A stretch of 64,000 bases of DNA from Minisyncoccota bacterium (GTDB taxonomy: Bacteria; Patescibacteriota; Minisyncoccia; Phycocordibacterales; UBA9973). The stretch is taken from contig JBAZOQ010000002.1 in the NCBI GenBank assembly GCA_041648595.1, positions 10,446 through 74,445 of the forward strand, in the 5' to 3' direction. Made by a program: the position numbers and the translations under genes. Shown piece by piece: positions 3,246 through 45,869 of this stretch. The notes beneath the pieces were generated by a model. That model was given only the letters and a program-made list of their open reading frames with translations, did not search any database and had not been told where the DNA came from. Every line of letters starts with the position of its first letter. Within the stretch, counting starts at the first letter, position 1.

Positions 3246-3270
3246 GTATTTTTTTAAAAAACCACCTTAA

Positions 3271-3570
3271 TTACATACTTCCTTCCATCTTTGGAGCTTC
3301 AGCCTCACAAGAAGCACAAACACCATCTACGCATTTTCCACACTTACAACCAAAAGCTAACATAACAGCAGATATACCAACCAAGATATAAATTACTGCT
3401 TCTAATGTTGGTATAGAACCTACAATCATATTTACAACATTCCAACCACCAACAACACCTAGAAGCATTCCTAGTCCTACCAAACCCCAGTTTATTCCTC
3501 CTATAACTACGAGAACTTTAGCAATCATAGCCATAGTACAACCACCTTTTTTACAACAATCTTTACACAT
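3271..3570 (-). CDS. DUF378-family small membrane protein with Cys-rich N- and C-terminal tails
   Basis: The INWGLVG DUF378 motif and two TM helices are present. The termini are MCKDCCKKGGC and GCKCGKCVDGVCASCEAE. Confidence 0.6.
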   Translation of the reverse strand: MCKDCCKKGGCTMAMIAKVLVVIGGINWGLVGLGMLLGVVGGWNVVNMIVGSIPTLEAVIYILVGISAVMLAFGCKCGKCVDGVCASCEAEAPKMEGSM

Positions 3571-3584
3571 AATTTTTTAGGCTT

Positions 3585-3660
3585 TAGGAAATCTAGGCTC
3601 TAGGCTTTAGCTTTTTAATTTAGCTAGTGCCTAACGCCTAACGCCTAGTGCCTATCTTAA
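3585..3660. repeat. Imperfect inverted/tandem short repeats (TAGGCTYTAGGC ... GCCTAACGCCTAACGCCTAG) between rpoD and the DUF378 gene
   Basis: Seen directly in the sequence; GC-rich relative to the surroundings and includes the GCCTAACGC motif that recurs at 15468 and 30020. Confidence 0.5.
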
Positions 3661-3749
3661 CTTATAATATTCCTACTTAAACGACGATTTAAATAGTTTT
3701 TAATAATATAAATTAATTATAGCATATCTAAAAAATAAAATAATACTTT

Positions 3750-7522: not shown

Positions 7523-10500
7523 TTATTCCTCCTCTTTAGGAGAAATAGTTCTGCTCTTAAATCCAGTTCCTGCTGGAATCAAACGTCCGATAATAACATT
7601 CTCCTTCAATCCTCGGAGTGAGTCAATCCCACCCTTCACTGCATTCTCTATAAGAACACGATTGGTATTTTGGAATGATGCAGCTGACAACCAACTCTTT
7701 GTACGTAAAGATACTTCAGTAATACCAAGTACTATTATTTCTGCTTTTGCTTCTTGTTGTTTTAATTTAACAATTCTCTCGTTCTCTTCAATAAATGCAG
7801 TATTCTCAACAATATCACCTATGGAAAAATTGGTTTCACCTGAATCTTTTATTTTTCTACGTGAAAACATTTGACGAATAATTATTTCAGTATGCTTTCT
7901 AGAGATCGATGCACTTTGAAGTTCATAAACTTTATTTATTTCTCTTATTATATATTCTTCCACCATCTCCTTAGTTCCAAACTTAAATATTCCAGCTATA
8001 TCAGCAGACCCATCGGTTAGGAGTTCACCCTTTTTTACTTTTTGACCTACTTTTACTATTGGTGTTCTACGAAATGGTATTAAATATTCTACTTCGTTTG
8101 CTTTACCATCAACTTTACTATCAGAAAGTACTTTAATAATTTTTTCTTTTTCATCTTTATTTTTTATTTCAAAAACTTCTCCATCTGTTTCTGAAATTAT
8201 TGCTGGGTTTTTAGGAATTCTTCTTTCAAAAATTTCTTCAATACGAGGCAACCCTGTAGTTATGTCTGTACCGGCAACTCCTCCAGCGTGGAATGTTCTA
8301 AGAGTGAGCTGAGTACCTGGTTCTCCAATTGCTTGCGCAGCAATGATTCCAACAGCTTCTCCAAGATCAACTAAATGATTTCTTCCAAGGTCTAATCCAT
8401 AACACATTTGACAAAGACCATGGGTAGTACGACATGTGAGAGGAGAACGAACAAATACTTCTTCATAACCCGCTCCTTCAATATTGTGTGCTTCTTCTTT
8501 TGTAATTAAAAATCCTTTTTTATAAACTACTTTTCCAGCTTTATCTTTCAAATCGCCAGCAAGTACTCGTCCACGGATATTTTTTGATAATGGTATTTCA
8601 ATTCCAGAAATATTTTCTCGAGTTACTATTTTACCTTCTTTTGTTCCACAATCTTCTTCAGTTATAACCACATCTTGAGCAACATCAACTAAACGACGTG
8701 TAAGATATCCAGCCTTGGCAGTATTGAGCGCCGTATCTGATGCACCCTTACGAGCACCGTGTGTTGTAACGAAATATTCAATTGAAGAAAGTCCTTCAAA
8801 ATAACTAGGTATAATAGGAAATTCTAGTGTTCTGCCTTGATTATTTTGTATAAGACCTTTCATTCCAGCCATCTGTATTAAAGAAGTCATTGTGCCTCTA
8901 GCCCCAGAAGTAAATAAATCAAAAGTAGAACCATTTTTATTAAGTGTCTTAGGAAGAACTTTTTCTAATTCCTTTTTTGCATATGTCCAAATTTCAATAA
9001 TTTTTTGATATCTTTCTTCTTCAGAAAGTAAACCTTCATTCCATTGTGCTATTATCTTTTCTTCTAATTTTCTACCTTCTTCTACAATTTTTACTTTTTC
9101 AACTGGAACTTTAACGTTATCCAATCCCCAAGTTGTACCAGAAAAAGTCGAATATTTAAAACCAAAAGTTTTTATACTATCTAATATTGGAGGAGTCTCA
9201 TCCACACCATAATGCATGATAAGTTCGTCAACAAGTGAAGATAGTCTTGTTGATGTCATTTCGTCACCAACATAAGAAAAATCATTGGGTAATATACTAT
9301 TAAATAAAAGTTTCCCAACAGAAGTATCAAAAAAACCTTCCTCAAATTTATGATATTTATGACTATCTGTCGCTAAAACTTTTATTTTTGCCCTAAGAGA
9401 AATAATTCCATATTCATAAGCTGTTATTGCAGTATTTGGACTTGAAAAATATTTACCTTCACCTATCTCACCATCAACAGATTTTGTCATCCAATAAGAT
9501 CCAAGTACAATATCCTTACTAGGATGAACTATTGGGTCACCATTTTGAGGTTTAAGTAAGTTTTTATTAGCAGCCATTAAATTTTTAGCTTCAGCTTGAG
9601 CTTCATCCAATAATGGAACATAAACAGCCATCTGGTCTCCATCGAAATCAGCATTAAAAGCCTGACAAACAAGTGGGTGTACTTGAATAGCATTCCCTTC
9701 TATAAGAATAGGATTAAATGCTTGAATACCTAAACGATGAAGTGTCGGTGCACGATTTAAAAGAACATATTTTCCTTGAATAACTTCTTCAAGCATTGCC
9801 CAAACTTCTGGAGTACGCTCTTCTATAAGTTTATTTGCTCCACGAATATTAAATGCAAGTTCTGCTAGTAAAATTTTAGAAATTACAAAAGGTCTAAACA
9901 ATTCGAGAGCCATATGTTTTGGTAATCCACATTGATTAAGTTTAAGATCAGGACCAACAACAATAACAGATCGGCCTGAATAGTCTACACGTTTACCAAG
10001 TAAGTTTTGACGAAACAAACCTTGTTTTGATTTTAAATTATCAGACAATGATTTTAGTGGACGCTTTTGAGATTGGCTCATAGCAGCACTATCATTTTGT
10101 TTTGCAATTGAATTATCTATAAGAGCATCCACTGCTTCTTGAATAATTCTTTTCTCATTTCGCAGTATTACATCTGGTGCATTTATTTCTTTTAATTTTT
10201 TAAGACGATTGTTTCTATTTATTACTCTACGATAAAGATCATTCAAGTCCGAAGTAGCATGACGCCCACCATCGAGTGCTACCATTGGACGCAATACTGG
10301 AGGAATAACAGGAATTACAGTCAAAAACATCCACTCAGGCCTGATTCCAGCATATGTCATAGCACGGATAAGAGAAAGTCTTTTTTGTAATTTTTCTTTT
10401 TCTATAGCACTTGCTTTTTCAAGCATTTTTTCCGTATGATTTTTTAATTTATTTAAATCAAGATTTTTAAAAATAGAATAAATAGCTTCAGCTCCAATAT

Positions 10501-11134: not shown

Positions 11135-14100
11135 ATTTTTTCAAGTTAACATCGAGAGCTAATCCTCGTAAATAATTAAGCAAAACATTAAACGATGCGG
11201 GAGAATTTGGTGGTTTAATAGTTTCATTTTTGATAATAGAATCAAATGTAGCAGATCGACCTAAAATGTCATCAGATTTAATTGTAAGCATTTCTCGTAA
11301 TGTATAAGCTGCACCATACCCTTCGAGTGCCCATACTTCCATTTCTCCAAATCTCTGTCCTCCACCTTGAGCTTTTCCACCTAATGGTTGTTGAGTAATG
11401 AGAGAGTAAGGTCCGATAGAACGCATATGAATCTTATCTTCTACCATGTGGTGAAGTTTCAACATATACATATAACCAACAGCAATATCTTGATCAAAAG
11501 CTTCTCCTGTACGTCCATCAAAAAGTTTTAACTTACCATTCTCTGGAAATCCAGCTTTTTTTAATTCTTCTCGTATTTCTTCATGACGTGCTCCTAAAAA
11601 TGGAGGAACAATAGCTTGATATCCCAATGTATTTGCAGCCATACCAAGATGCATTTCTAATATTTGTCCCAAGTTCATACGAGAAGGAACACCAAGCGGT
11701 GAAAGAATTATATCTACTGGTGTACCATCTGCTGCATATGGCATATCTTCTTCTGGAAGAATTCTTGAAATAACTCCCTTGTTTCCATGTCTTCCTGAAA
11801 GTTTGTCTCCAACTGAAATGTTTCTAATCTGAGCAACTTCAATAACTATTTTTTTAATAATTCCTGCTTCAAGTGTATGTCCCAAATCACGAGAAAAAAT
11901 CTTAATACCAATAATACGTCCACGTTTTCCGTGCTCCATTCTTAGTGATGTATCTTTAACATCACGTGCTTTTTCAGCAAAGATTGAACGTAGTAATCTT
12001 TCTTCTGGGGTAAGTTCAGTCTCACCTTTTGGTGTAATTTTACCAATCAAAATATCGTTTTCTCTAACTTCAGCACCAATACGAACAATACCATCTTCAT
12101 CTAAATCTTTAAGTTTTAATTCTCCAACATTTGGAATATCACGAGTAGTGATTTCAGGTCCTAATTTAGTATCACGAACAACACAAACAAATTCTTCAAC
12201 ATAGACACTAGTAAATTTACTCTTTTTCACAAGACGCTCAGAAATAATTATAGCATCTTCATAATTTGATCCAGACCAAGACAAGAATGCTACAAAAATA
12301 TTTTGTCCAATTGAAATTTGTCCATCCACTGTACTTGTCGTATCAGCTAAAACATCTCCTTTCTTTATTTTTTGACCTACGTCTACTGCGGGACGTTGAT
12401 GAAAAGAAGAAAAATTATTATTTCTCAAAAAATTAACAAGCGTATAAGTTTTTTCTTTATCTCCCTTTCCTTTTACTACTATTTTTTTCGCATCTAAATA
12501 AGAAACTACACCATCTTCTTCTGCAAGAACAATTCTACCAGAATCTCGAGATGCAAGAGCTTCAATACCAGTAGCCACTAGTGGTGCTTCTGGAAGAACA
12601 CAAGGTACTGCTTGTTTTTGCATGTTTGATCCCATGAGAGAACGATTAGCATCATTGTGCTCTAAAAAAGGAATCATTGAAGTCGCTACTGAGAAAGCTT
12701 GATTTGCAGCAACATCAATAAAATCAACTTCATCGCGACTAATCATTCCTGGATTAGTTTTTACTCTAGCTGCAACTCTTTCTTCTGTTATTTTTCCATC
12801 CTTATCATAAGAAATAGCGGCATGAGCAATGTTGTATTTTTCTTCTTCAAGTGCATTTAAGTATTGTACTTCATCAGTAATTTTTCCATTTTTTACTTTT
12901 ATATATGGAGTCTCTATAATTCCAAAATCATTTATTTTTGCATAAGTTGAAAGATGTAAAATAAGACCAATGTTTGGACCTTCAGGAGTATGAATAGGAC
13001 AAACTCTTCCATAGTGAGAAGGATGAACGTCTCGAACTTCTAACCCTGCACGTTCGCGCGTTAAGCCTCCAGGTCCTAATGCGGACAATAAACGAATATG
13101 TTCTATTTCTGCCAAAATATTTTCTTGACTCATGAATTGTGAAAGTTGGTTTGTGGTAAAAAATTCCTTAATACGTGCTTGAAGTGGACGTTGATTAATT
13201 ATATGAATTGGTAATGCTGTATCAATATCAATAATAGACATTCTGTCTTGAATATTTCTTTTAATTTGCATCATACCAGTACGTACTTTCTGTTGAAGCA
13301 TTTCTCCAACAAAGCGAACACGTCTCTGTCCTAAGTGATCAATGTCGTCAGACTTAGCACCTACTGTGTTATTTAAAACAATAATATTTGTAATTACTGT
13401 CATTAAATCTTCTTTAGAAATAGTTCTAAGGGCAAGTTCTTCATCACCCAATCCTTTTTCAAAACGTTTATTAAACCTATATCGTCCGACAGGAGAAAGA
13501 TCATATCTTTCAGGAGTAAATAAAGAATTAATAAATTCTTTGGCATTTTCAGGTGTTGCCATATCTCCATCTCTCAAGCGTTTATATATTTCAATATATG
13601 CATCGTTTAATGTCTTTGCTATATCTTTTGCAAGACAAGCTTCAATAGCATCTTTACAAGAAGGAGTTTTCTCAAATGCTTTTAACATTGCTTCATTGGT
13701 ACCATAACCCATAACACGTAAAAGTGCTGTCGCTGGGAATTTTCTTTTTTTGTCTATTCTTATGTAAATTGCTCCATCGGATTCTGATTCTATTTCAATC
13801 CAAACTCCACGAGCTGGAATAATTTTTGCACCAAAATATCTTTTACCTTTACTTTCAGACTCAGTAAAGAAAACTCCAAAAGAACGTGCAAGCTGTGGCA
13901 CGATAATACGTTCTACTCCATTTATAATAAAAGTTCCATGTGGAGTCATTAGTGGAAGCTCAGACATAAAAATCTCTTGCTCTTTAACAGTACCTAAAAT
14001 TTTATTTGTTAACTTTACACGAGTCTTCAAAAGACCTTGATATGAAAGTTTATTTATTTTAGCTTCATTCTCTCCACAATTAGCTTCACCTAAAGAGAAA

Positions 14101-14291
14101 GATGAAAACTCAAGTTCAAATTTTTTTCCAGAATAATCTACAATAGGAGAAAATTCTTTAAAAACTTCTTTAATCCCTTCTTCAATAAGCCACTTATATG
14201 ACTTAGTTTGAGCTTCTATTAAATTTGGAAACTCAATCAGCGGATTTTTATATCTCGCAAAATACTTCTTCGGACGTTTTTCTGTTTGCAT
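11118..14291 (-). CDS. rpoB: DNA-directed RNA polymerase beta subunit
   Basis: 1057 aa with conserved beta-subunit blocks (GEMEVWALEGYGAAYTLRE and others). Overlaps rpoC by 17 bp. Confidence 0.97.
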   Translation of the reverse strand: MQTEKRPKKYFARYKNPLIEFPNLIEAQTKSYKWLIEEGIKEVFKEFSPIVDYSGKKFELEFSSFSLGEANCGENEAKINKLSYQGLLKTRVKLTNKILGTVKEQEIFMSELPLMTPHGTFIINGVERIIVPQLARSFGVFFTESESKGKRYFGAKIIPARGVWIEIESESDGAIYIRIDKKRKFPATALLRVMGYGTNEAMLKAFEKTPSCKDAIEACLAKDIAKTLNDAYIEIYKRLRDGDMATPENAKEFINSLFTPERYDLSPVGRYRFNKRFEKGLGDEELALRTISKEDLMTVITNIIVLNNTVGAKSDDIDHLGQRRVRFVGEMLQQKVRTGMMQIKRNIQDRMSIIDIDTALPIHIINQRPLQARIKEFFTTNQLSQFMSQENILAEIEHIRLLSALGPGGLTRERAGLEVRDVHPSHYGRVCPIHTPEGPNIGLILHLSTYAKINDFGIIETPYIKVKNGKITDEVQYLNALEEEKYNIAHAAISYDKDGKITEERVAARVKTNPGMISRDEVDFIDVAANQAFSVATSMIPFLEHNDANRSLMGSNMQKQAVPCVLPEAPLVATGIEALASRDSGRIVLAEEDGVVSYLDAKKIVVKGKGDKEKTYTLVNFLRNNNFSSFHQRPAVDVGQKIKKGDVLADTTSTVDGQISIGQNIFVAFLSWSGSNYEDAIIISERLVKKSKFTSVYVEEFVCVVRDTKLGPEITTRDIPNVGELKLKDLDEDGIVRIGAEVRENDILIGKITPKGETELTPEERLLRSIFAEKARDVKDTSLRMEHGKRGRIIGIKIFSRDLGHTLEAGIIKKIVIEVAQIRNISVGDKLSGRHGNKGVISRILPEEDMPYAADGTPVDIILSPLGVPSRMNLGQILEMHLGMAANTLGYQAIVPPFLGARHEEIREELKKAGFPENGKLKLFDGRTGEAFDQDIAVGYMYMLKLHHMVEDKIHMRSIGPYSLITQQPLGGKAQGGGQRFGEMEVWALEGYGAAYTLREMLTIKSDDILGRSATFDSIIKNETIKPPNSPASFNVLLNYLRGLALDVNLKKYENTK

Positions 14292-14639
14292 GATTAATTT
14301 AGTCTAAATAAAACAAGAGAAACAAAAGAAAAACAGACAAAAAATACTTTTCTCTAGCTTCTTTTAAAATTATTTAGATATTTATGATTAAGCTTATTAA
14401 TATAACCTATTAATACAAACTGAGATACATCCGAAACTCAATCAAATCTCTTATTTACTAGTATACTTAATATTCCTATTTTGTCCACTTGACATTTAAA
14501 TTCAAATATGCTATGCTTCTACCAGATTAAGCTACTTGAAATAGTGAACAATTAGATTGGTCTTCTAAGTTTCTTTTACTTAAAAGATATTTGGAAGATC
14601 AATTTAATTAATTCATTCAATAAAACAAAAGGAACTATC

Positions 14640-15248
14640 ATGAAAAACTTTCTTTCAATTCTCGTACGTTGGGCATTGGTTTGCTCAATATTTGTGATCA
14701 TAACAATACTTTCTGTTAATCACCCATTATCTGCTCTTGATCACTATAAATTCAGCATACTGGGTGCTGGGTTTATATATTTGGCGATTTTTCACTTTAT
14801 TAAAAGTGAAGACCCTAGTGAATTACTATGGCATGGTACATTATTTCGATACACAATAATAGTGGGGTTATGTCTCTTAATATTTTTGGTTGTCTCTCTT
14901 TTTAAAATAAAAGAAGATAACAACCTATGGAATTTTATGACAATAGTAGTATTTTTTGCTATTTTAGCAGTCCAAATAATTGATGTGATTGTAAATATAA
15001 TAAAAATTACTAAAGGTAGTTCATTGAATGATGGACTACTCTCTATAGAAATTACTGCACTGATTGGAGGAATACTTTATTTTATCTCCGTAGAAAGTGA
15101 TTGGTTATCATGGATAACCTATTCTGAAGACTGGTTTAATTCATTAGGATGGACAACTATAATAGGATACCCATCACTTATCCTAGTCACGTTTATGCCA
15201 AAAATTTGGCCATGGTTATTTTTAATCAAACCAAAAACCATAGAATAA
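14640..15248 (+). CDS. Hypothetical polytopic membrane protein
   Basis: About six predicted TM helices with no recognisable motif. It is the only sizeable plus-strand gene in this region. Confidence 0.5.
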   Translation: MKNFLSILVRWALVCSIFVIITILSVNHPLSALDHYKFSILGAGFIYLAIFHFIKSEDPSELLWHGTLFRYTIIVGLCLLIFLVVSLFKIKEDNNLWNFMTIVVFFAILAVQIIDVIVNIIKITKGSSLNDGLLSIEITALIGGILYFISVESDWLSWITYSEDWFNSLGWTTIIGYPSLILVTFMPKIWPWLFLIKPKTIE

Positions 15249-35868: not shown

Positions 35869-37692
35869 TTAGCGTATTTGCCAACTTGAATTTTCGCTTA
35901 TTTTATGACTTATTTTAGCCATAATTTCATTAATTTCCTCATCTTTCAAAGTTCTCACAAAAGATTGAAAAACAAGTCTAAAAGCATATGAGGTTTTTCC
36001 TTCCTTTGTAAATGAATCAAACAAAAAAGGTTCTTTAACTAAAAGTTCTGTGGCATTTTCTATGAGTAATTTTTTAAGTGTTTCAGAACTTTCTTCTTCT
36101 CTAATCCATACAGCTATATCACGAGAAATAAATGGATAAATTGACCAAGGTTTAAATTTTTGTTCTTCAAAATTCTGTCCCAAGTCAATAAATGGCAAAA
36201 CTTTTTTATCAAAATAGTCAGTAGGAATTTTTTCAGAAACAAAATTCTCTAATGATGTCTCCACTATATTTTTATTATCACCATAAGCAACATGCATCAT
36301 TTCTTTATTTTTATCAAAAACAGTTCCAATTTCAAAAATTTTAATTTCTTTCATTCCAAGAAATGGCGCATTAAGTTGATTAAGTTTCAAACTTTCTTCT
36401 AATCCATCTGTTAAATTTATTCTCAAAAAATTTTTATCTGATGCAGACGCAAGAACTTCCACATTTCCCCCATTTCTAAATGAATATGTCATAACTTCAG
36501 AATAACCATCATTCAAAAGTTTATTTCTAGCTACAGAAATATTATAAAATTTTTCATTCATTTTTGGACTCCATTCTATTTTTGGTAATTTCCCTTCTAT
36601 TCTTTCATATCCTAAAATTTTAATTACATCCTCAGCTAAATCATGTGGGCCAGTTATATCTATACGTAATAATGGAACTAAGATTTTAAATTCACCATTT
36701 TCTTCTTCATATTCAAAACCTAATTTTTCCCAAACACTTTCAATCTCCTCCTTCAAGAAATAAGTACCAAGTCTTTTGTTTATATATTCCACTGATACAA
36801 AAACAGTATTTTGTTTTAATTTTTTAGGATAAATATCTACAATTTCTTCTATATTACCTCCTGCTATATCAAGAATTAAATTAGTTATTTCATTCATAAC
36901 TTGAAAACAAAGTTCTGGAGATATTTCATTTTCATATCTTTTTACAGCATCAGTTAAAATTCCAATTTTCTTTGATGTCTTCCTTATAGAAACTGCATCA
37001 AAATTAGCAACTTCTATAATTATATTCTTCGTATTATTGTCTACCTCAGCTTTCATACCACCCTTTATACCAGCAATAGCTAATACTTCGTTCGCCTGTG
37101 GTGAGCCTGTCGAACCATCAGCAATTACTAAAATAGATTCATCTAAATTAATTTCTTTTTTATCAAGAGTAGTAATTCTCTCACCAGTTTTTCCATTTCG
37201 AATAATTATTTTTTCACTCTCTAATTTATCTAGGTCAAAACAATGAATTGGTTGTCCTAAGTCAAACATAACAAAATTAGCAGTGTCTACAATATTATTT
37301 ATTGATTTTTGACCTATCGTCTCTAATCTATTTTTTAACCAATCTGGACTTTTTTCAATTTTTATATTTCTAATAATTCTTCCCATATAACGAAAACATT
37401 TTTCTGATTCAATTTTAATATTTAAATTAGTCGAAACTGATTTAAAATTTTTATATTCTTTTTCTTTTAACTTCAAATTAAAAATAGCCTTGACTTCCTT
37501 CGCAATTCCCCAATGTGAAAGACAATCATGTGCTCTATCCGGTAAAACTTTGATATCAAAAATAACATCATCACCTACTTTTTCTAAGCTTTCTACTTCA
37601 AAAGAATGAAAAATAATACCATCAGCTAATTTTTCAGGATCTGGTAATCTTTCTTCAAAATAATTTTGCAACCAATTATAACTAACTTTCAT
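35869..37692 (-). CDS. pheT: Phenylalanyl-tRNA synthetase beta subunit (short form)
   Basis: MKVSYNWLQNYF N-terminus and a B3/4 domain. Lies downstream of pheS. Confidence 0.85.
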   Translation of the reverse strand: MKVSYNWLQNYFEERLPDPEKLADGIIFHSFEVESLEKVGDDVIFDIKVLPDRAHDCLSHWGIAKEVKAIFNLKLKEKEYKNFKSVSTNLNIKIESEKCFRYMGRIIRNIKIEKSPDWLKNRLETIGQKSINNIVDTANFVMFDLGQPIHCFDLDKLESEKIIIRNGKTGERITTLDKKEINLDESILVIADGSTGSPQANEVLAIAGIKGGMKAEVDNNTKNIIIEVANFDAVSIRKTSKKIGILTDAVKRYENEISPELCFQVMNEITNLILDIAGGNIEEIVDIYPKKLKQNTVFVSVEYINKRLGTYFLKEEIESVWEKLGFEYEEENGEFKILVPLLRIDITGPHDLAEDVIKILGYERIEGKLPKIEWSPKMNEKFYNISVARNKLLNDGYSEVMTYSFRNGGNVEVLASASDKNFLRINLTDGLEESLKLNQLNAPFLGMKEIKIFEIGTVFDKNKEMMHVAYGDNKNIVETSLENFVSEKIPTDYFDKKVLPFIDLGQNFEEQKFKPWSIYPFISRDIAVWIREEESSETLKKLLIENATELLVKEPFLFDSFTKEGKTSYAFRLVFQSFVRTLKDEEINEIMAKISHKISENSSWQIR

Positions 37693-37703
37693 ATTTTTTA
37701 ATT

Positions 37704-38414
37704 TTAAAACTGATTAAATCTTAAATCTCCTTGATAAGCTGGACGAATATCTGGCATTCCATATTTAATTACCATAAGTCTTTCAAGTCCTGGACCAAAT
37801 GCAAATCCTTGATATTTTATAGGGTCAATTCCACAATTTTTTAAAACATTTGGATGAACCATTCCTGCACCACCCATTTCAAGCCATTTACCATTAAATT
37901 TCAAATCAAATTCAATAGATGGTTCTGTAAAAGGAAAAAAACTAGGACGAAATCGCAAATCAACATCACTCCCTAATATTTTTTTATAAAAATAAGAAAG
38001 AGTTCCTTTTAAGTGTGCCATGTCTATATCCTCCCCTATCATAAGTCCCTCGATTTGATAAAATTGCATTTCATGTGTCGCATCTGTCGCTTCATTTCTA
38101 AAACATTTTCCAGGAGCAATAATTGCGAAAGGTGGTTTACCACCAGATTTCACAAGATTTTCCATGTAACGAATTTGAACAGAAGAAGTATGAGTCCTTA
38201 AAACCTTATCCGTTTCCCCTTTTATAAAAAAAGTATCTTGCATATCACGAGCTGGATGATCTTTGGGAATATTTAATGCATCAAAATTGTGCCAAATATC
38301 TTCTAATTCTGGACCAGTAGCGACTTCAAAACCAAGCTCAGTAAAAATTTTTACTGCTTCGTTTATAATTATTGAAAGTGGATGTTCTTTTCCCTTTTTT
38401 GATTCTTCGCTCAT
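37704..38414 (-). CDS. pheS: Phenylalanyl-tRNA synthetase alpha subunit (catalytic core only)
   Basis: Class II motifs FRPSFFPFTEPSIEFD and GAGMVHPNVL. Confidence 0.88.
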   Translation of the reverse strand: MSEESKKGKEHPLSIIINEAVKIFTELGFEVATGPELEDIWHNFDALNIPKDHPARDMQDTFFIKGETDKVLRTHTSSVQIRYMENLVKSGGKPPFAIIAPGKCFRNEATDATHEMQFYQIEGLMIGEDIDMAHLKGTLSYFYKKILGSDVDLRFRPSFFPFTEPSIEFDLKFNGKWLEMGGAGMVHPNVLKNCGIDPIKYQGFAFGPGLERLMVIKYGMPDIRPAYQGDLRFNQF

Positions 38415-38536
38415 TAAAAAAATATATCACAAAAAAAGCTTTTCTGCTATATGGATTACCATATAGCAATGGCACTCAGACATCAAATAAATAAACAAAT
38501 TTGTTTGTGCTCCTCGTTTTTTGCTATAATAAAAAC

Positions 38537-38632
38537 ATGAAAAAAATCGAATGGATTTTAATTATCTTAATAATTCTATTTGCAATATTAGGCCTTTATT
38601 TAGGGTGGCTAGATAATGGTCCTAGTTTTTAA
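38537..38632 (+). CDS. Candidate 31-aa single-TM micropeptide (MKKIEWILIILIILFAILGLYLGWLDNGPSF)
   Basis: Not in the ORF track because it is too short. Preceded by TTGCTATAAT (-10) at about 38520. Speculative. Confidence 0.25.
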   Translation: MKKIEWILIILIILFAILGLYLGWLDNGPSF

Positions 38633-40122
38633 TCTAATTCATTTAGGTGTTTCCAAATAGCATACATAGCATATGTATCAAGTTTACAGTAAGTCTTTAA
38701 ATGCTCAATCTTCTCTAGTGCTTCTTCTTTTGTATAAAAACCACTAACAATTTTATTCCATGCATCTGAAGCTGTAGCTCCTTCTTGTATGTCAAGAACT
38801 TTATAAGACAATTCTGGAGCAATCACTGGCAATATATATTTAATAGAAGTTTTACCCTTAAATTTTGGATGAATATAATATTGTTCAGAAAAAATATCCA
38901 TAAGGTCAATCATTCTAGAATTTATATTTTCTAGAGCTATTTTATATTCAGGATTTCTTTTTGCAAGATCCTTGTTTCTTCCCATTTCAAAACTCTTATT
39001 CCAAACAATAATAGACCCACTACTAGGTAATTTTTCTATAAGAGCTAAAATAAATTCTTCATCTGGATTTTTATTCTTAGTAAAAATAAATTCAGAATGT
39101 TTTGGTTCACTATTTTTATCTGAAAGTAAGTGCAAGGAAAATTGAAAAGTTATCTGATTATAGGGACTGAAACCAGTAAATCTTGGAATTCCTGCTGCAA
39201 AAGTTTCATAATCCAAGAAAGACAGAGGCATAATCATAATATCTAAAAAACTTTTAATTTCTTCTTTTTTTATAAATATTTTATTCAATTGTGTCGCTAT
39301 GACTTGATTTTTTTGTTTATCACTTAATGGGAAATCTTCTGGTACATCTTCAATAAGAAAAATACTACTATCAATCAATTCTTCCAATTTCTTTTTTGAC
39401 ATTCCAATACGAGAAATATCATGAACACTATAATCAGGTATGTGTGGATTTGAATAAGAAAAAGTAGTGCAATGAGAACTTCTACCACGAATAACACATT
39501 TACAAGGACCAAAAGGCTCTTTTTCCTCTGCTAAAAATTTTTGTGCAACTTTCATTTCTTCTTCAACTATGGGAATAATCCCAAAAACTCTTTCTGTAAA
39601 ATCTTCTTTCAAAAAAAGTTGATTTATATCAAGCTCAACACCCCTTACATATTCGTTATTAAATCTTACAAGAAATAATTTACCCATTGGTACATTTAAT
39701 TTTTTCAACACCAAATATTGAAAAGCTATATCATAACTATAAAGTTTATCTTTTGCCCCTTTGTCTTCCCCACTATTAGAGGCTTTGACTTCATATAAAT
39801 CATAAACCTGAGAATTTGAATTCCACACTAAAATATCACATATAGTTTTATATAAATCTGTTTCAAATACTGGTTGATAAATCACAGACGTTTTAGCTTT
39901 TATAAGTTTTTCTGTTTCTTCCATAGCGTCACCATCATCAACTAAAATACCATTTGGAAATAAATCTCGAGCAAGAATATCAACTTCATTACCTGTTTCT
40001 ATTATTCCTTGATCAAAAGCAGATAATGGTTCGGCAAAATAAATATCCGGCTTGTGTATCTTCAGCCAAGCATTCTTTGCACAGTCTTTCCATATGAGAA
40101 AATCAGTTTTGGTTAATTTCAT
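38629..40122 (-). CDS. DUF2779-like dual-nuclease protein (N-terminal PD-(D/E)xK, C-terminal DnaQ/RNase-H-like)
   Basis: YDLYEVK (D..E.K) motif N-terminally. LDYETFAAGIP exonuclease motif I C-terminally. 4-bp overlap with the upstream ATPase gene. Confidence 0.55.
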   Translation of the reverse strand: MKLTKTDFLIWKDCAKNAWLKIHKPDIYFAEPLSAFDQGIIETGNEVDILARDLFPNGILVDDGDAMEETEKLIKAKTSVIYQPVFETDLYKTICDILVWNSNSQVYDLYEVKASNSGEDKGAKDKLYSYDIAFQYLVLKKLNVPMGKLFLVRFNNEYVRGVELDINQLFLKEDFTERVFGIIPIVEEEMKVAQKFLAEEKEPFGPCKCVIRGRSSHCTTFSYSNPHIPDYSVHDISRIGMSKKKLEELIDSSIFLIEDVPEDFPLSDKQKNQVIATQLNKIFIKKEEIKSFLDIMIMPLSFLDYETFAAGIPRFTGFSPYNQITFQFSLHLLSDKNSEPKHSEFIFTKNKNPDEEFILALIEKLPSSGSIIVWNKSFEMGRNKDLAKRNPEYKIALENINSRMIDLMDIFSEQYYIHPKFKGKTSIKYILPVIAPELSYKVLDIQEGATASDAWNKIVSGFYTKEEALEKIEHLKTYCKLDTYAMYAIWKHLNELD

Positions 40123-41264
40123 ACAGTATTTATTTTTAATAAATCTTTTATGGCATCATCAAGTTTTTCAATTAATTCGATTTTTGTTTTCCTGTCTTCG
40201 GTTTTTATTGGATGAGCTATATTATGCCTAAGACGACTAACATAAGAAAGCTTCCATTTTATTGTATTATCATTACTATATTCTGTTTTATTTGATATTT
40301 TTGATAAAATAAATTTTTCAAAAACCTCTCCTTCTAATTTTGAATTATCTTTAACAAATTGATACAATTCGAGAAAATATGTTTTACTTGGTAATCTAAA
40401 AACCAAATAATTTATTTCTGATGAAGATTTGTAGGGCAAAGATCTTTCTTCTAAAATTTCTTTTACTTTTGTAGCATTATCCGTACCAGACCTATCAACC
40501 CTATAAATCTTAAAATCTTTTCCTAAATCAATAAAGTATGGATCATGTGTTGTGATAATCACCTTAATCTTTTCATTACTGTTTTCTACAAGGTCAATTA
40601 AGGAATTAAATAAGGTTTCTTTTAATTTGGGATGCAAATAAATTTCTGGTTCTTCAAACACTATATAAGTTAATTTGTTAGAAAACTTTTCCCCTTTTTT
40701 ACTACCTAAATATTTTAATAAAGAAGCTATAATTAATCTTTGTGTTCCTTGACCAACCTCTGACAATTTAATTCCCTCCTTATTAGAATAACAATCCTTG
40801 GTTGTTAAGGAATCAATCAACTTTTTTGCATAAACATCTTTTATTGCCTTTATATAATCATCATTTGTAATTGTATTAATTTTTGTTTTTGCTAAAAGTT
40901 CTGTTTTTTCAACACTAAATTTAGAAAATTCTAATGGCAATAGCTTATCAATATCTTTAACCGCGCTTGTTATGTATTCATCCTTGAAATCAACCTCAAG
41001 TAGCTCTCTTATTGCTAATCTAAATGGGTCTCCTTCAGCTCCAGTTTTAATTTCTACATCAGGCAAAACTCTTTCTGCCGGAATATTTATGACATTAATA
41101 TTGTCCTTCTCTAACTCTTCAATAATAACCTTAATAAGATTTGTTTTTCCTGCATTGTTTTCTCCAGCAAATATAGTAAATAATCCAAGCTCCAATTCTC
41201 CTATATCTTCAGTAAGACTACTGTCCTTTCTTTTTTTTATTGTAATTTTTAAATTTTTTATCAT
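40119..41264 (-). CDS. ABC-type (AAA_15/AAA_21, OLD/PtuA-like) ATPase with a C-terminal Rx4-6H (HEPN-like) motif
   Basis: Walker A GENNAGKTN, signature-like LSEVGQGTQRL, Walker B/D-loop IVFEEPEIYLHP, H-loop TTHD, and C-terminal RLRHNIAHP. Confidence 0.6.
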   Translation of the reverse strand: MIKNLKITIKKRKDSSLTEDIGELELGLFTIFAGENNAGKTNLIKVIIEELEKDNINVINIPAERVLPDVEIKTGAEGDPFRLAIRELLEVDFKDEYITSAVKDIDKLLPLEFSKFSVEKTELLAKTKINTITNDDYIKAIKDVYAKKLIDSLTTKDCYSNKEGIKLSEVGQGTQRLIIASLLKYLGSKKGEKFSNKLTYIVFEEPEIYLHPKLKETLFNSLIDLVENSNEKIKVIITTHDPYFIDLGKDFKIYRVDRSGTDNATKVKEILEERSLPYKSSSEINYLVFRLPSKTYFLELYQFVKDNSKLEGEVFEKFILSKISNKTEYSNDNTIKWKLSYVSRLRHNIAHPIKTEDRKTKIELIEKLDDAIKDLLKINTV

Positions 41265-41277
41265 ATTATTTATTTAA

Positions 41278-42060
41278 TTAATTTAAAAATTTTAAAAACT
41301 CATCAAAACACAAAGCACTCATTATATACTGGTCGGGTTTTAATTCATGCAAACTTCTATATAGAGTTGAAGATGCAACCCATGGAACCCCGTCAACTAA
41401 ACCAACTTTTATAACTTTTAGAATCTTTCTTTCTTTCACTAAATTCTTAACTTCTCTAACACTTTTATCTTGTGTTCCTCCAGGGCTACTAACGAATTTT
41501 GACTCTCCTATTATATAAACATTTTTTACTTTTATAACAAAATCTAACCCCTTTTTTCTATCATAATTTAGGTATTTTTTTGCAAAATCTTTCAATTTTT
41601 TATCTCCTCCCTCAAGAGACACAATCCCATTGTTAATTTTCAAAAATTTATCTTCTGGTAAAACTTTATACTGCTTATGAATCCAATGTGAAAAATAATG
41701 ACCAAATTTTCTAGAGGCAGATTTTGGTCTATTTATACCTTCTATTATTCCATCAACGCCGAGCGTTTCCAGCCTTTTAAAAATTCTTTTTACTGTTTTG
41801 GGATTTCTAGATAAAGCTTCTTCAAAATGTCTAATAAATCCTATATAAGGATCATCAAAAGGGAATCTTTTTAACTTAATAAGATAAGATATCAACTCTT
41901 TTGGTTTATGCACATTCAGTAATTTTCTAATTTCTTTTATAGAGTTTTCATCGATTCTGTTTTCTCCACCAGTCTGATTAATAGGATAAATTTCCGAAAT
42001 TTTATCGAGATATCCTTGTTTTTTTGCTATTTCAAAACTTTTTTCTGTCCAAATATTCAT
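41278..42060 (-). CDS. Putative type II restriction endonuclease (PD-(D/E)xK)
   Basis: GLDFVIKVKNVYIIGESKF gives D...ExK spacing. Overlaps the methyltransferase gene stop. Confidence 0.5.
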   Translation of the reverse strand: MNIWTEKSFEIAKKQGYLDKISEIYPINQTGGENRIDENSIKEIRKLLNVHKPKELISYLIKLKRFPFDDPYIGFIRHFEEALSRNPKTVKRIFKRLETLGVDGIIEGINRPKSASRKFGHYFSHWIHKQYKVLPEDKFLKINNGIVSLEGGDKKLKDFAKKYLNYDRKKGLDFVIKVKNVYIIGESKFVSSPGGTQDKSVREVKNLVKERKILKVIKVGLVDGVPWVASSTLYRSLHELKPDQYIMSALCFDEFLKFLN

Positions 42061-42062
42061 AT

Positions 42063-43238
42063 TTAAAAGTTAAATGCTGGTTGATTACTGATTGATTTAT
42101 CAATCTTAGTAGAATAAATATAATTTAGCAACTTATAGGTAAAATCAAAACTTATTCTTTTTCTATTATTATCTCTAAAATTTGTTAAAAACAATGATAA
42201 ATGTTTTTCTCTTGCTTCTTGTAATTCTTCATTGAAAAGTTTGATTAATTTTAATTGTTCTTCTATTGGTAAAGGTCTTTTAAACATAAGGTAAGCCATA
42301 TTTCTAGAAGTTTCCTTACCTATCAACCCAAAAACATTATATTTTCTAATATCCTCTAACTGTATTTTTTTACCATTTTTACTATCTATGGCTCTAAGAA
42401 AAATTACATTACTTTTTATGGCATCTTTTAAGGTACTATTTAATCTGTGTTCCTCTATATCTTTTATATTATTGAATGCTAAACGTATACTTGCTGGACC
42501 GTTCTTTAAATCTTTTACAGTTAAACGATATATACCTAATATATTTTTCGCCGAATTAATTTTAGAAATAAACTCACCACCTAGTTGCCATCCATAATTT
42601 TTATTTAACTCTATTTTAACTTTATGGTCATTTGGAAAAATATGAGCATCAAAAACCATCTTATCTTCTTTTTTTTCTTTCTTTTTATAATGAAAAGAAA
42701 TAACATTGTAAGTTGTATCATCAAAAACTTGTTCAGTAAAAATATTAAGCTTTGTTATTTTAAACTTGTCAAAGAAAATTTCTCTAATTTTTTCAGAATT
42801 TTCAGCTGATAAAAAATTAAGTGGAACAACAACAATTCCTTCATTGCTTTTACTGATTGCTTTAAGAGAAACTTGATATAAATCTTCAAAGATAGAATTG
42901 CTCCCAGAGAAACATAAGCTTTTAGTTTTTGAATCAGCTTTATTTTTATGTAAATAGGGTGGGTTTGTAATTACAAAATCATATTCTCTAGGGTTATTTA
43001 AACTATCATTGAAAAAAACTTCTTTTTTATCAACTAATTGTTTATCAACATCAAAACCAATAACAGACTTTGTTTCATGCTTTTTTGCCCATTTCATTAA
43101 ATCTTGAGAACCAGCAAAAGGATCAGTAATATTTTTACCTTTTATAAATTTTTCAAAACCTTGTAAAATATAGTCAGAATTAGTTGTAAAAAATTGTCCA
43201 AGCTGTTTTTTCTGCATGTATTTAATTATACCATACAA
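42063..43238 (-). CDS. N6-adenine DNA methyltransferase (gamma-class, Eco57I/TaqI-like)
   Basis: GQFFT motif X, DPFAGSQ motif I and NPPY motif IV. Confidence 0.85.
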   Translation of the reverse strand: MYGIIKYMQKKQLGQFFTTNSDYILQGFEKFIKGKNITDPFAGSQDLMKWAKKHETKSVIGFDVDKQLVDKKEVFFNDSLNNPREYDFVITNPPYLHKNKADSKTKSLCFSGSNSIFEDLYQVSLKAISKSNEGIVVVPLNFLSAENSEKIREIFFDKFKITKLNIFTEQVFDDTTYNVISFHYKKKEKKEDKMVFDAHIFPNDHKVKIELNKNYGWQLGGEFISKINSAKNILGIYRLTVKDLKNGPASIRLAFNNIKDIEEHRLNSTLKDAIKSNVIFLRAIDSKNGKKIQLEDIRKYNVFGLIGKETSRNMAYLMFKRPLPIEEQLKLIKLFNEELQEAREKHLSLFLTNFRDNNRKRISFDFTYKLLNYIYSTKIDKSISNQPAFNF

Positions 43239-43245
43239 TAACTAA

Positions 43246-43641
43246 TTATTCTGTTGTTACTCCATCAAATTCTGGACCATTTTCTGCCTCAATTTTTGTA
43301 GCTTTGATTATTTGATCTTTATGGTGGGCTGGAGAATAAATAGTATAGAGCTTCAAATCATCTGTACTAGATGTATTAATTATATTATGTTCTGCTCCTG
43401 CTGGAACTACAATAACTGACCCATCAGCAAGTTCATATGAATTACCATCAATAATACATTGACCTTGTCCTTTTTCAAAACGAAAAAATTGATCATTATC
43501 AGAATGAATTTCCATTCCTATATCTTCATTTGGCTTCAAACTCATTAAAACTAATTGACTATGTTTTCCTGTATATAAAACTTTACGAAAATTTGTATTC
43601 TCTATTGCTTCTTTTTCTATATTTGTATTGAATCCTTTCAT
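43246..43641 (-). CDS. Cupin-domain protein
   Basis: GMEIHSDNDQFFRFEKGQGQ...VVPAGAEHN, the two-His cupin_2 motifs. Confidence 0.7.
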   Translation of the reverse strand: MKGFNTNIEKEAIENTNFRKVLYTGKHSQLVLMSLKPNEDIGMEIHSDNDQFFRFEKGQGQCIIDGNSYELADGSVIVVPAGAEHNIINTSSTDDLKLYTIYSPAHHKDQIIKATKIEAENGPEFDGVTTE

Positions 43642-43733
43642 GTTAATATACTTCTAATAATTAATAAAAAAAACCGACTTATTGTAAGTTTAACATATTT
43701 AAAAATATAATACTTTAAAAGTATAATTTATAT

Positions 43734-44654
43734 TTAAATTTTTTTAGGAAATATAATTGAAAGAATGATCGATAAACAAAGAGCACACATTATAACTCCA
43801 AACGAAATCAAGGAAGATATGTGTAAACCAAATATTCCAGAAAACATTTTTAAGCCAATAAACAATAAAATAACTGCTAAACCTTTTTGTAGATGATGAA
43901 AACGATGCAATATGTTTTCAATTAAGAAAAATAACGCTCGTAACCCCATAATCGCAAAAATATTAGAAGTAAATACAATAAATAAATTCTGCGAGATAGC
44001 AAATACTGCTGGAATAGAATCAACAGCAAAAATAATATCCGTTGTTTCTACCATTAAAACGATCATAAATAATGAAGTAAAATAAAATTTACCATTCTCC
44101 CTAAAAAAGAATTTACCGTTATGGTGATTATTAGTGAAGGGTAAAATTTTATGAGCAAATTTTATAATTTTATTATTATTAAAATCTATATGTTCTTCTT
44201 TTTTATCATATAATAATTTAATACCCGTATAAACAAGTATTACTCCAAAAACATATAATATCCAATAAAACTGATGAATCAAATACGATCCTGCTCCTAT
44301 AAAAACTCCTCGGAAAATTATAGCCCCTAAAATACCCCAAAATAAAGCTCTATGATGATATTTTTCTTCTAGTTTAAAAAAACTAAAAATCAACATTATA
44401 ACAAACAAGTTATCTACAGATAACATCTTCTCTGTAACATACGCACTAATAAACTCAGCAGCTAATTCTTTGCTCATATACAAAGAAATTAAAAAACTAA
44501 AAACCAACGCTATCACAACCCAAAATAAAGATTGATAAAATGCTGGTTTAAATTCTACTTTATGATTTCTCCTATTAAAATACCCAAGATCTAATACTAG
44601 AAATCCTACAATAATAACACAAAATAAAATAATCAGATTTGTCTGTGCATCCAT
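43734..44654 (-). CDS. TerC-family integral membrane protein
   Basis: SVDNLFVIMLIF and DSIPAVFAI motifs, about 9 TM helices. Confidence 0.8.
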   Translation of the reverse strand: MDAQTNLIILFCVIIVGFLVLDLGYFNRRNHKVEFKPAFYQSLFWVVIALVFSFLISLYMSKELAAEFISAYVTEKMLSVDNLFVIMLIFSFFKLEEKYHHRALFWGILGAIIFRGVFIGAGSYLIHQFYWILYVFGVILVYTGIKLLYDKKEEHIDFNNNKIIKFAHKILPFTNNHHNGKFFFRENGKFYFTSLFMIVLMVETTDIIFAVDSIPAVFAISQNLFIVFTSNIFAIMGLRALFFLIENILHRFHHLQKGLAVILLFIGLKMFSGIFGLHISSLISFGVIMCALCLSIILSIIFPKKI

Positions 44655-44680
44655 GAAAATATATTTTTATATTAATTATT

Positions 44681-45178
44681 CTATTTAAATAAAGTATGTT
44701 TTTGAATAAAAGATGTATTCTCCCACCATTTACCTAAACCTAAATACTGACTAGAGTTTGTTAAAATAAGAACTATTATTATCAATATATACACTATATG
44801 TTCATCTATAAATGGATTATTTGCTGGAAATATTCCAATTGCCGTATACATAAGAAACAACATTACTATTCCAGAAAGACCACCCAGTTTCATAAAAACA
44901 CCAAAAACAAGTGAAATACCAACAAAAAGTAAACCTAGCATAAACAACCAATCTACTAATTGAGATCCAGCAATACTTTGAAAAAATGTAGCGAAAGGAC
45001 CATGAACACCAAATTTCAAAAATCCAGTTGTTGGAGAACCACCAGATACCCATGCACCTTCCGGTGTAGTAGCAAAACCAAGTCCATATAATTTATCTAC
45101 AAATACCCAAAGAAAAATCCAACCCATTATTATTCTTAATAATCCTAAAAAATATTGCACTTTATTATTTTGTTCCAT
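44681..45178 (-). CDS. DoxX-family membrane protein
   Basis: LLRIIMGWIFLWVFVDKL...GPFATFFQSIAG pattern of the DoxX/DoxD family. Confidence 0.6.
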   Translation of the reverse strand: MEQNNKVQYFLGLLRIIMGWIFLWVFVDKLYGLGFATTPEGAWVSGGSPTTGFLKFGVHGPFATFFQSIAGSQLVDWLFMLGLLFVGISLVFGVFMKLGGLSGIVMLFLMYTAIGIFPANNPFIDEHIVYILIIIVLILTNSSQYLGLGKWWENTSFIQKHTLFK

Positions 45179-45256
45179 AAGATAATTTTAGCACAAATAA
45201 AAAACATATGTTATATGGTTTCCTTTTTTGTTTAAATAAGGTAGATTAAAGAATAT

Positions 45257-45343
45257 GGAGGCGTCGCATAGCGGTCTAGTGCACCATCTTGGAAAGGTGG
45301 CAGGCTCGAAAGGGTCTCGAGAGTTCAAATCTCTCCGCCTCCG
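45257..45343 (+). tRNA. tRNA-Ser (anticodon GGA), type II with a long variable arm
   Basis: Acceptor GGAGGCG/CGCCTCC. Anticodon stem CCATC/GGTGG with loop TTGGAAA. 18-nt variable arm. T-arm GAGAG-TTCAAAT-CTCTC. Discriminator G. No encoded CCA. Confidence 0.85.
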
Positions 45344-45347
45344 CAGA

Positions 45348-45869
45348 TTAAATTTTAACTAGTGCTTGTTTAGGATAATTTAGTGAAAAGAACTCTTTTG
45401 AAACAACCCACTTATTTATCAATGGACTTAAAGTAAGTGCAAAACCGATATTTCCCGCTAAATGTAATGCGGTAAAAGGAATTTGCATAACTAATGCATT
45501 TAATATAGTCTGTCCAAATATTGGAGCAAATAAAACTCCAGTGACTAAATCAAAAATTATCGTTGCAAAAAATGAAAATAAAGCAAAATGAAATATTGAT
45601 GTTTTAAATTTATTAAAATAAATTGAAGAAAATGCTCCAATTATTCCATAAGTAATTCCAACTATCCAAGTCCAAGACCCAAAATTAGTAAAAACATCAA
45701 ATAAAAAAATACTAAGAAAACCGAAAAGAAAACCGAAAAAAATTCCATATTTACGCCCCAAAGGCATAATAGAAGCCATTATTGGCTCTACATTAGGAGC
45801 TCTTAGTGGAATTAACCTAAATAAAAGACATCCGGTAAATATAATGACTATTTTAAATTTATCTTTCAT
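45348..45869 (-). CDS. Hypothetical polytopic membrane protein
   Basis: Five or six TM helices. Start taken at the ATG of MKDKFKI, because the track start at 45887 lies inside the repeat element. Confidence 0.45.
   Translation of the reverse strand: MKDKFKIVIIFTGCLLFRLIPLRAPNVEPIMASIMPLGRKYGIFFGFLFGFLSIFLFDVFTNFGSWTWIVGITYGIIGAFSSIYFNKFKTSIFHFALFSFFATIIFDLVTGVLFAPIFGQTILNALVMQIPFTALHLAGNIGFALTLSPLINKWVVSKEFFSLNYPKQALVKI

Follow-up and report, generated by a model that had tools for sequence, protein, structure and literature searches.

Four minus-strand genes at positions 38629-43238 of a 64,000-nucleotide stretch of DNA from a Minisyncoccota bacterium (assembly GCA_041648595.1, contig JBAZOQ010000002.1, positions 10,446 to 74,445 of the forward strand; hereafter the window) encode a DNA methyltransferase, a restriction endonuclease, an ABC-type ATPase with a helical C-terminal domain, and a dual nuclease of the DUF2779 family. 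Our analysis somewhat favours the view that this block brings together three separately evolving units: a restriction-modification (R-M) cassette, a stand-alone defence gene coding for an ATPase with a candidate HEPN ribonuclease (RNase) domain, and a resident DUF2779 nuclease. The evidence comes from domain content, conserved catalytic residues, synteny, insertion boundaries, the behaviour of the genes as cassettes and the statistics of their neighbours. The original prediction, made from the sequence alone, had described the four genes as a single defence operon in which an ATPase and nuclease module was fused to an R-M pair. The open reading frame (ORF) listing bears out the genes, their limits and their spacing: the methyltransferase occupies 42063-43238 (391 amino acids, aa, from a TTG start), the endonuclease 41278-42060 (260 aa), the ATPase 40119-41264 (381 aa) and the DUF2779 protein 38629-40122 (497 aa). 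The first two are separated by 2 bp and the second and third by 13 bp, while the ATPase and DUF2779 genes share a 4-nt ATGA overlap. The idea of one operon with a fused R-M pair did not survive, given that the R-M genes behave as an independent cassette and that methyltransferase, endonuclease and ATPase are all missing from the corresponding spacer in the closest relative.

That relative (locus L001), whose DUF2779 protein is 82% identical to that of the window, has the same order of cupin, DUF2779, pheS and pheT genes with nothing between the first two. The cupin DNA is 85% identical in both. Similarity does not extend past the cupin stop codon, and L001 has its DUF2779 ATG 16 nt further on. 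Since the spacer is empty there, the methyltransferase, endonuclease and ATPase genes constitute about 3.1 kb of lineage-specific DNA, which extends from the cupin stop to the DUF2779 start (40123-43245). Both flanks are conserved, lie outside the block and are also on the minus strand: the cupin gene upstream (43246-43641; Pfam Cupin_2, 7.7e-15) and pheS downstream (37704-38414). The cupin gene is syntenic with DUF2779 in L001-L004, and L001-L003, L008 and L195 all retain the order DUF2779-pheS-pheT; in another relative a TerC gene overlaps DUF2779 by 4 nt and the R-M genes are absent. On this synteny, DUF2779 is best regarded as a resident gene at an ancestral site beside pheS, which would predate the arrival of the ATPase and the R-M genes. 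Inspection of the edges of the 3.1-kb insert for repeats gave only short AT-rich chance matches, and no recombinase gene was found in the window.

The compact layout of the block, with its genes head to tail in a gene-dense Paceibacteria chromosome, does not speak for a common role. Tight spacing is a habit of this genome, with gaps of 13 bp or less in 18 of the 51 same-strand neighbour pairs across the window (35%) and the unrelated cupin gene located only 7 bp upstream of the methyltransferase, and it therefore provides no argument for shared function. Promoter-like matches in the region 37500-45500 were at chance level (46 versus 49 expected) and uninformative on operon structure, and a scan of the same region gave no terminators. 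The G+C content is around 0.26-0.35 over the whole window.

The domain assignments of the original prediction for the first three proteins (a gamma-class N6-methyladenine, or m6A, methyltransferase, a PD-(D/E)xK endonuclease and an OLD/PtuA-like ATPase with a HEPN-like tail) agree with the profile searches, and the motifs it had pointed out (GQFFT, NPPY and RLRHNIAHP) are present in the translations. The methyltransferase matches Pfam Eco57I (1.7e-8) and N6_Mtase (1.2e-6) as well as the PADLOC model MTase_II (3.3e-11), and its translation shows the motif order GQFFT (within LGQFFT), DPFAGS and NPPY, including both the S-adenosylmethionine-binding motif I (DPFAGS) and the catalytic motif IV (NPPY). 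The endonuclease matches Pfam Tsp45I over nearly its entire length (1.6e-58, residues 2-258 of 260) and PADLOC REase_II (2.1e-44), with a D...ESK motif read in the translation as GLDFVIK...GESKF; its 185 homologues are mainly from Patescibacteria. Endonucleases of the Tsp45I family (259-261 aa, 57-67% identical) follow a methyltransferase of 383-390 aa in three other contexts (L189-L194), and neither the ATPase nor DUF2779 was present near the pair in any of the three. Because the pair recurs in these contexts without the other two genes, we consider methyltransferase and endonuclease to form an autonomous two-gene type II R-M cassette. The full-length Tsp45I match and the adjacent gamma-class m6A methyltransferase, as in other Patescibacteria, make it comparable to R-M systems of the Tsp45I type. 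Depletion of the sequence GTSAC would have indicated that the cassette had been resident for long, but GTSAC is not depleted in the window (observed/expected ratio 0.95), a result that fits either a recent arrival or another recognition site. Both its specificity and the blocking of cleavage by methylation are given here as predictions. The start of the methyltransferase (43217-43238) is ambiguous, as an in-frame ATG seven codons in (codon 8) would give a protein of 384 aa, a length similar to the 383-390 aa of its homologues.

In the ATPase, residues 1-261 (40482-41264, minus strand) form an ABC-type head of the OLD/AAA_15 class. The protein matches Pfam AAA_15 (2.9e-21) and AAA_21 (1.6e-16) and the PADLOC models Old (2.4e-23) and AriA (1.3e-22), and the Old, AriA, GajA and PtuA matches are limited to its first ~300-330 residues. 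The homologues of 350-400 aa number about 237 and come mainly from Patescibacteria. Among 40 relatives that are 29-65% identical, the invariant residues include those of Walker A (G34, N36, N37, G39 and K40), the signature (G173 and R176), Walker B (E204-E207) and the H-loop (T239-H240-D241). The full-length AlphaFold2 model (predicted local distance difference test, pLDDT, 85.6) gave as best Foldseek matches in the PDB the retron Eco8 effector, the Thermus OLD protein (6p74, 3e-7), GajA, PtuA and AriA, so that the closest structural matches of the modelled protein belong to the defence clade of ABC ATPases. TOPRIM and DUF4435 had no match in the ATPase or in its neighbours with Pfam or PADLOC. 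In viral contigs, 18 weak matches to the head were obtained, most of them partial and with 22-37% identity, giving no sign of a gene family that belongs mainly to phages. Two members of the family, P0126 and P0128 (501-521 aa), have an extra AIG2/GGACT match (PF13772/PF06094), similar to gamma-glutamyl cyclotransferases, which is listed ahead of AAA_15; in P0128 the tail domain is C-terminal.

The remaining residues of the window protein, 262-381 (40122-40481), make up a helical domain that is a candidate HEPN RNase, predicted by AlphaFold2 as six helices and a hairpin (pLDDT 90.9). Its RLRHNIAHP sequence contains an Rx4H motif, R346-H-N-I-A-H351 (40212-40229, minus strand), and both R346 and H351 of the LRHxIAHP motif are invariant in the same 40 relatives and again in an alignment of 31 C-terminal sequences. 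Of these 31 tails, nine match HEPN_RiboL-PSP (best 9e-6), four HEPN_MAE_28990 and one pEK499_p136, and the only match among PDB sequences is an entry named 'Dandelion-hepn', aligned on RH..AHP with E = 0.13. A profile of the tail retrieved 707 protein clusters (at 50% identity) among 1.84 billion representatives; the domain is C-terminal in the matches that are near full length, and follows an AAA_15/AAA_21 head in all the members checked. The tail is covered by no model in PADLOC v2. We conclude that it is probably a HEPN domain and that, as judged by these profiles, OLD-like ABC ATPases with an Rx4H helical domain rather than TOPRIM at their end constitute an undescribed family.

Within this family the ATPase of the window has a mixed ancestry. 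Over residues 1-262 it shares 70-77% identity with protein P0122, but over residues 311-381 the identity to P0122 drops to 31% and that to P0137 is 69%; the protein is best explained as a recombinant. In L021, L022 and L028 the gene next to the ATPase codes for a large serine recombinase, and one is also found with it in L015. In this last locus the recombinase gene (2660-4201, minus strand) and an inverted copy of its own 3' end (around 8723-8878, plus strand) enclose a DUF2130-ATPase-DUF2779 block, with a total length of about 6.1 kb; in L022, a recombinase gene (1910-3448, minus strand) and an inverted copy of its 3' end (around 4700-4810, plus strand) have the ATPase alone as cargo. The inverted copies are 98-100% identical to the recombinase 3' ends over 37-52 aa, and these look like a family of small elements, mobile or invertible, in which a recombinase is accompanied by a member of the ATPase family.

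The commonest upstream neighbour of the ATPase is DUF2130 (six loci, E ~1e-62), reportedly counted as a member in a survey of the PD-(D/E)xK superfamily and with no model in PADLOC. Other genes found at two genes or less from the ATPase code for N6_N4 methyltransferases (five), C5 methyltransferases (two), EcoO109I endonucleases (two), an EcoRI methylase, ResIII and PIF1 proteins and recombinases, the R-M types beside other family members being unrelated to that of the window. Downstream genes are heterogeneous: in loci that lack DUF2779, phmmer comparisons detected no other recurrent partner. They include a type II endonuclease directly after the ATPase in L011 (8170-9378; PADLOC, 5e-94), the methyltransferase that goes with it being encoded on the opposite strand, an AbiV HEPN protein in L032 (7100-7657, 7-nt overlap), an ExoX-like DEDDh exonuclease following DUF2130-ATPase in L045 (7200-7910), and a GmrSD-HNH protein near the ATPase in L024. 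Taken together, the mosaicism, the cassette replacement, the carriage by recombinases and the R-M neighbours make the ATPase typical of an immune gene, and on these comparisons it can be described as a mobile, hypervariable accessory gene that is swapped as a cassette.

The behaviour of the fourth gene is very different. The original prediction had described its product as a combination of a Cas4-like and a DnaQ-like nuclease, and this is well supported by a match to Pfam DUF2779 (PF11074, 7.9e-40, residues 302-426; there is also a weak RNase_H_2 match, 3.5e-4) and by the catalytic residues, which show no variation among 27 relatives with 32-82% identity: D96, E111 and K113 in a Cas4/RecB-like PD-(D/E)xK half (residues ~1-230; 39433-40122, minus strand) and D304, E306, E379, Y478 and D482 in a DEDDy 3'-5' exonuclease half with an RNase H-like fold (residues ~296-497; 38629-39237 with the stop codon, minus strand). 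The four Cas4-type cysteines are all kept in the window protein, C14 and C209 being nearly invariant in the family and C207 and C218 also present here. No PADLOC model matches this protein, although its relative in L015 matches the Cas4 models (9e-7), and an hmmsearch of PDB sequences with the DUF2779 profile gave no match. There are more than 2300 homologues; the best 120 are 60-90% identical, most of them with exactly 497 aa, and those with a name come from Nomurabacteria, Paceibacterota and other Patescibacteria, with one labelled Bacteroidota.

The Cas4-like plus DEDD architecture of the DUF2779 family has already been described (PMC13621843, PMC3985635), and the mycoplasma member MMSYN1_0389 is reported to be quasi-essential in the minimal cell JCVI-syn3.0 (PMC13621843). 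The protein of the window shares with that UU173 family the Cas4-like N-terminal half and the DEDD C-terminal half with a tyrosine at the general-base position (PMC13621843), but it is shorter (497 aa versus the 650 positions of the NCBIfam UU173 profile), has four Cas4-type cysteines versus two in the mycoplasma protein, and scores 83 bits with UU173_fam, below the cut-off of 225. It thus appears to represent a distinct, shorter branch of the family in bacteria of the candidate phyla radiation (CPR). A general DNA-end-processing enzyme with a housekeeping role and a putative Fe-S cluster in its Cas4-like half is the most likely function. The original prediction had assigned DUF2779 to defence unless a conserved non-defence role turned up in its relatives, and what we find is a conserved gene at a conserved position with a quasi-essential member (PMC13621843), which speaks against a defence assignment.

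The position immediately upstream of DUF2779 is occupied elsewhere by a variety of defence-type genes: DUF4011/AAA_11/AAA_12 helicases with an MTES_1575 nuclease, SNF2, ResIII, HerA, Type ISP and Eco57I-type enzymes, and DUF2130. At position -1 of DUF2779 (L109-L188), ORFs of at least 700 aa account for 12 of 71 genes; at +1 and +2 they account for 3 of 106 (Fisher p = 0.0016). Several such loci have a serine recombinase gene at the distal end of the insert. The slot may be either an insertion hot spot or the mark of a functional association with DUF2779; that unrelated defence genes are found in it points to the former.

With three units, the proposed working of the block would be as follows. 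The R-M cassette would cut incoming DNA that is unmethylated, and the ATPase, which has the design of the anticodon nucleases PrrC and RloC in its architecture, would act largely on its own. Its head would sense a trigger, which might be a phage protein, aberrant DNA or the loss of activity of a neighbouring enzyme, and this would alter the nucleotide-dependent oligomeric state of the protein, so that two HEPN domains come together and form a composite Rx4H site. This would cut RNA, most probably tRNA, stop translation and make the infection abortive. In this scheme the RNase activity of the ATPase, its trigger and the abortive outcome are predictions from sequence.

Several observations weigh against separating the units in this way. 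Some concern the tail of the ATPase, for which the HEPN assignment is made from weak profile matches and the motif: the HEPN_RiboL-PSP match of the window tail itself is weak (0.026, below the gathering score), and a Foldseek search of the tail against the PDB gave nothing significant and no HEPN fold. The others concern the relation between the ATPase and DUF2779. In a scan of GTDB species representatives we found 30 loci with full-length ATPase members, 28 of which have a downstream gene and make up an unbiased set. Three of them (L015, L042 and L043) have DUF2779 as the next gene downstream, in the same orientation, which makes it the commonest downstream neighbour; if one gene in 500 were a target, the chance probability of such a count would be about 2e-5. 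The window, L008, L009/L010 and L195 show the same order, but these loci were chosen on hints of co-occurrence and are not an unbiased sample, and the 4-nt overlap of both genes in the window is also seen in L009. In addition, the DNA of L015 and L042 is 87-91% identical exactly over DUF2130 and DUF2779 and around 40-50% identical over the ATPase, with flanks that cannot be aligned, and in L015 the entire block is inside the recombinase and inverted-repeat element mentioned above. DUF2130-[ATPase]-DUF2779 thus looks like a functional three-gene unit travelling with a swappable middle gene, as would be expected of a variable sensor placed between conserved nuclease effectors. The analysis had started from the idea that DUF2779 was simply a bystander, and this was softened after the comparison of the L015 and L042 blocks.

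These data make it a serious, if minority, possibility that the ATPase and DUF2779, plus DUF2130 in the loci that have it, make up a sensor-effector system of the same type as Septu, Gabija or PARIS, with the R-M genes as mere neighbours. This is the part of the original prediction that proposed an ATPase and dual-nuclease module, and it stands in that the pair does recur without R-M genes (in L008, L009, L015, L042, L043 and L195). With the window, order and orientation recur in seven loci in which both genes come in widely diverging versions, the two are neighbours far more often than expected by chance, there are start/stop overlaps of 4 nt, and blocks with around 90% nucleotide identity lie between unrelated flanks, recombinase-enclosed in one case. 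The finding that another nuclease is sometimes downstream in place of DUF2779 (the ExoX-like protein of L045, GmrSD-HNH in L024, the endonuclease of L011, AbiV in L032) would also suit such a system. If a variable sensor were paired with a conserved effector, this would explain why, between L015 and L042, the DUF2130 and DUF2779 proteins are 92% and 91% identical while the ATPases are only 34% identical. On the other hand, DUF2779 is missing from 25 of the 28 unbiased ATPase loci, and in none of the 55 metagenome DUF2779 loci for which 1.2 kb or more of upstream DNA is available is the ATPase found, i.e. the nuclease gene is almost never accompanied by it. The ATPase has a candidate effector domain of its own, the conservation of DUF2779 far exceeds that of a typical defence effector, its chromosomal position is fixed, and the slot upstream of it also accepts Type ISP, SNF2, DUF4011 helicase-nucleases and HerA. 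The two proteins do not vary in parallel either: between L042 and L043 the ATPases are 56% identical and the DUF2779 proteins only 41%, and the Spearman coefficient of the identities of both over six pairs is 0.12. On these values the two phylogenies are incongruent, and neither gene co-evolves with the other.

Among described systems, Septu consists of PtuA (an ABC ATPase) and PtuB (HNH), and HEC-01/02/03 combine an ABC ATPase with a TOPRIM, NERD or PIN partner; the arrangement of an ATPase gene followed by a nuclease gene is similar here and the PtuA and HEC-01A models match the head weakly, but the partner is a 497-aa Cas4-like plus DEDDy protein which is itself a conserved chromosomal gene, and no HNH, TOPRIM, NERD or PIN partner was found in the window. 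In particular, the PtuA model matches residues 199-261 of the ATPase only (5.5e-10), with no HNH gene in 38629-43641, and the GajA models match only the head (~1e-11 to 1e-12), with no helicase gene in the block. The original prediction was right in finding no correspondence with canonical Septu, Gabija or Lamassu. As for the OLD family (P2 Old, GajA, the retron Eco8 effector and AriA-AriB), it includes the best profile and fold matches of the head and shares the design of a sensor ATPase with a nuclease effector, but the protein of the window has a 120-aa helical Rx4H domain in place of TOPRIM and a length of 381 aa versus the ~510-750 aa of the matched chains. P2 OLD has been recently reported to be an abortive tRNase (bioRxiv 10.64898/2026.07.10.737580).

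A further, rather unlikely alternative is that the ATPase-HEPN protein is a PrrC-like guard of an adjacent DNA enzyme, be it the R-M system, the DUF2130 nuclease or DUF2779, in which case a phage inhibitor disabling the guarded enzyme, or the accumulation of aberrant DNA ends, would fire its abortive RNase, in the way that PrrC guards EcoprrI. PrrC and RloC consist of an ABC ATPase N-domain and a C-terminal HEPN anticodon nuclease (PMC3458546, PMC3710099), and PrrC is encoded inside hsd loci, where the R-M enzyme keeps it silent (PMC3458546; bioRxiv 10.1101/2024.01.29.577857). DUF2130, for its part, is listed in a survey of the PD-(D/E)xK superfamily (PMC3424549). The likeness of the window ATPase to PrrC and RloC resides in a single chain of ~380-400 aa with an ABC nucleoside triphosphatase head and a C-terminal helical domain with an Arg...His motif, and in genes that are often beside R-M genes. 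The differences are several. Pfam AAA_13 has no match to the window ATPase at E <= 0.1, its head matching AAA_15/AAA_21 of the OLD clade; its tail resembles HEPN domains of the RiboL-PSP or MAE_28990 type; the neighbours here are type II R-M or nuclease genes, with no hsdR, hsdS or hsdM detected at the locus, unlike those of PrrC; and the coiled coil and zinc hook of RloC are lacking. The ATPase thus seems to share the PrrC/RloC design in architecture only, with no detectable sequence membership. If it did act as a guard, DUF2779 would be a phage-targeted DNA-end-processing nuclease in reduced genomes, with a role similar to that of RecBCD/AddAB, and DUF2130-ATPase-DUF2779 would be a new mobile three-gene immune module.

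It is quite improbable that the ATPase and DUF2779 work as a housekeeping DNA-repair machine, similar to SbcCD or Rad50-Mre11, with no part in defence. The conservation of DUF2779 and the reported quasi-essentiality of one member (PMC13621843) would be in line with such a role, as would the presence of RecF, RecN and Rad50 relatives in the ABC ATPase clade, UvrA and RecN being among the weaker Foldseek matches, and the location of one family member after dinB. The ATPase, however, is patchy and mosaic, is replaced as a cassette and is associated with recombinases and R-M genes; it bears an invariant Rx4H motif of the HEPN type, and its best structural matches are defence ATPases.

That all four genes form one system, be it a type II R-M with ATP-dependent accessories or an R-M fused to a two-gene module, is very improbable in spite of their common direction and close packing (gaps of 2, 13 and -4 bp) and of the frequent location of ATPase members near R-M genes, reminiscent of PrrC embedded in EcoprrI (PMC3458546), since the four-gene set was found only in the contig of the window, the R-M pair occurs alone, ATPase-DUF2779 occurs without R-M genes, the R-M types near other ATPase members are unrelated to this one, and the cupin gene is equally tightly spaced.

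Under the favoured arrangement in three units, the R-M pair is a routine find, and the interest of the locus is in the other two genes. The ATPase family would represent a compact effector similar to PrrC in the CPR bacteria, which have been little studied. DUF2779, for its part, is repeatedly found just downstream of the ATPase, as well as of genes for other helicases, nucleases and R-M enzymes, and this is a clue to the role of a conserved nuclease; it offers a testable lead, i.e. that DUF2779 is tied to DNA-end processing in the conflict with phages or that its 5' flank is a hot spot for defence islands.

Some additional observations were made in the surroundings of these genes. In L001, a second R-M set is located between pheT and gyrB (12177-14802), composed of an N6_N4 methyltransferase, an endonuclease of the BsaWI family and a second methyltransferase; the window has nothing at that site, a second variable R-M slot in the neighbourhood. 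Over positions 1-64000 of the window, the sequences CCSGG and CCWGG are strongly under-represented (observed/expected 0.20 and 0.43, respectively), which suggests past or present pressure from an R-M system of the CCNGG type encoded elsewhere in the genome. In L195 (157-1734, minus strand) and L011 (from around 15043 to the end of the locus, minus strand), the ATPase members adjoin a LexA DNA-binding domain and S24 peptidase fused to a DNA methyltransferase, the fusions being of the C5 type (525 aa) and of the N6_N4 type (621 aa); such unusual fusions might tie methylation to a cleavage switch similar to that of the SOS response. Finally, in L004 (9514-10656) and L009 (4878-6017), both on the minus strand, the pheS and pheT pair of the window is replaced by a single gene on the opposite strand for a phenylalanyl-tRNA synthetase of 379-380 aa with tRNA-synt_2d and FDX-ACB domains, a layout known from the mitochondrial enzyme.

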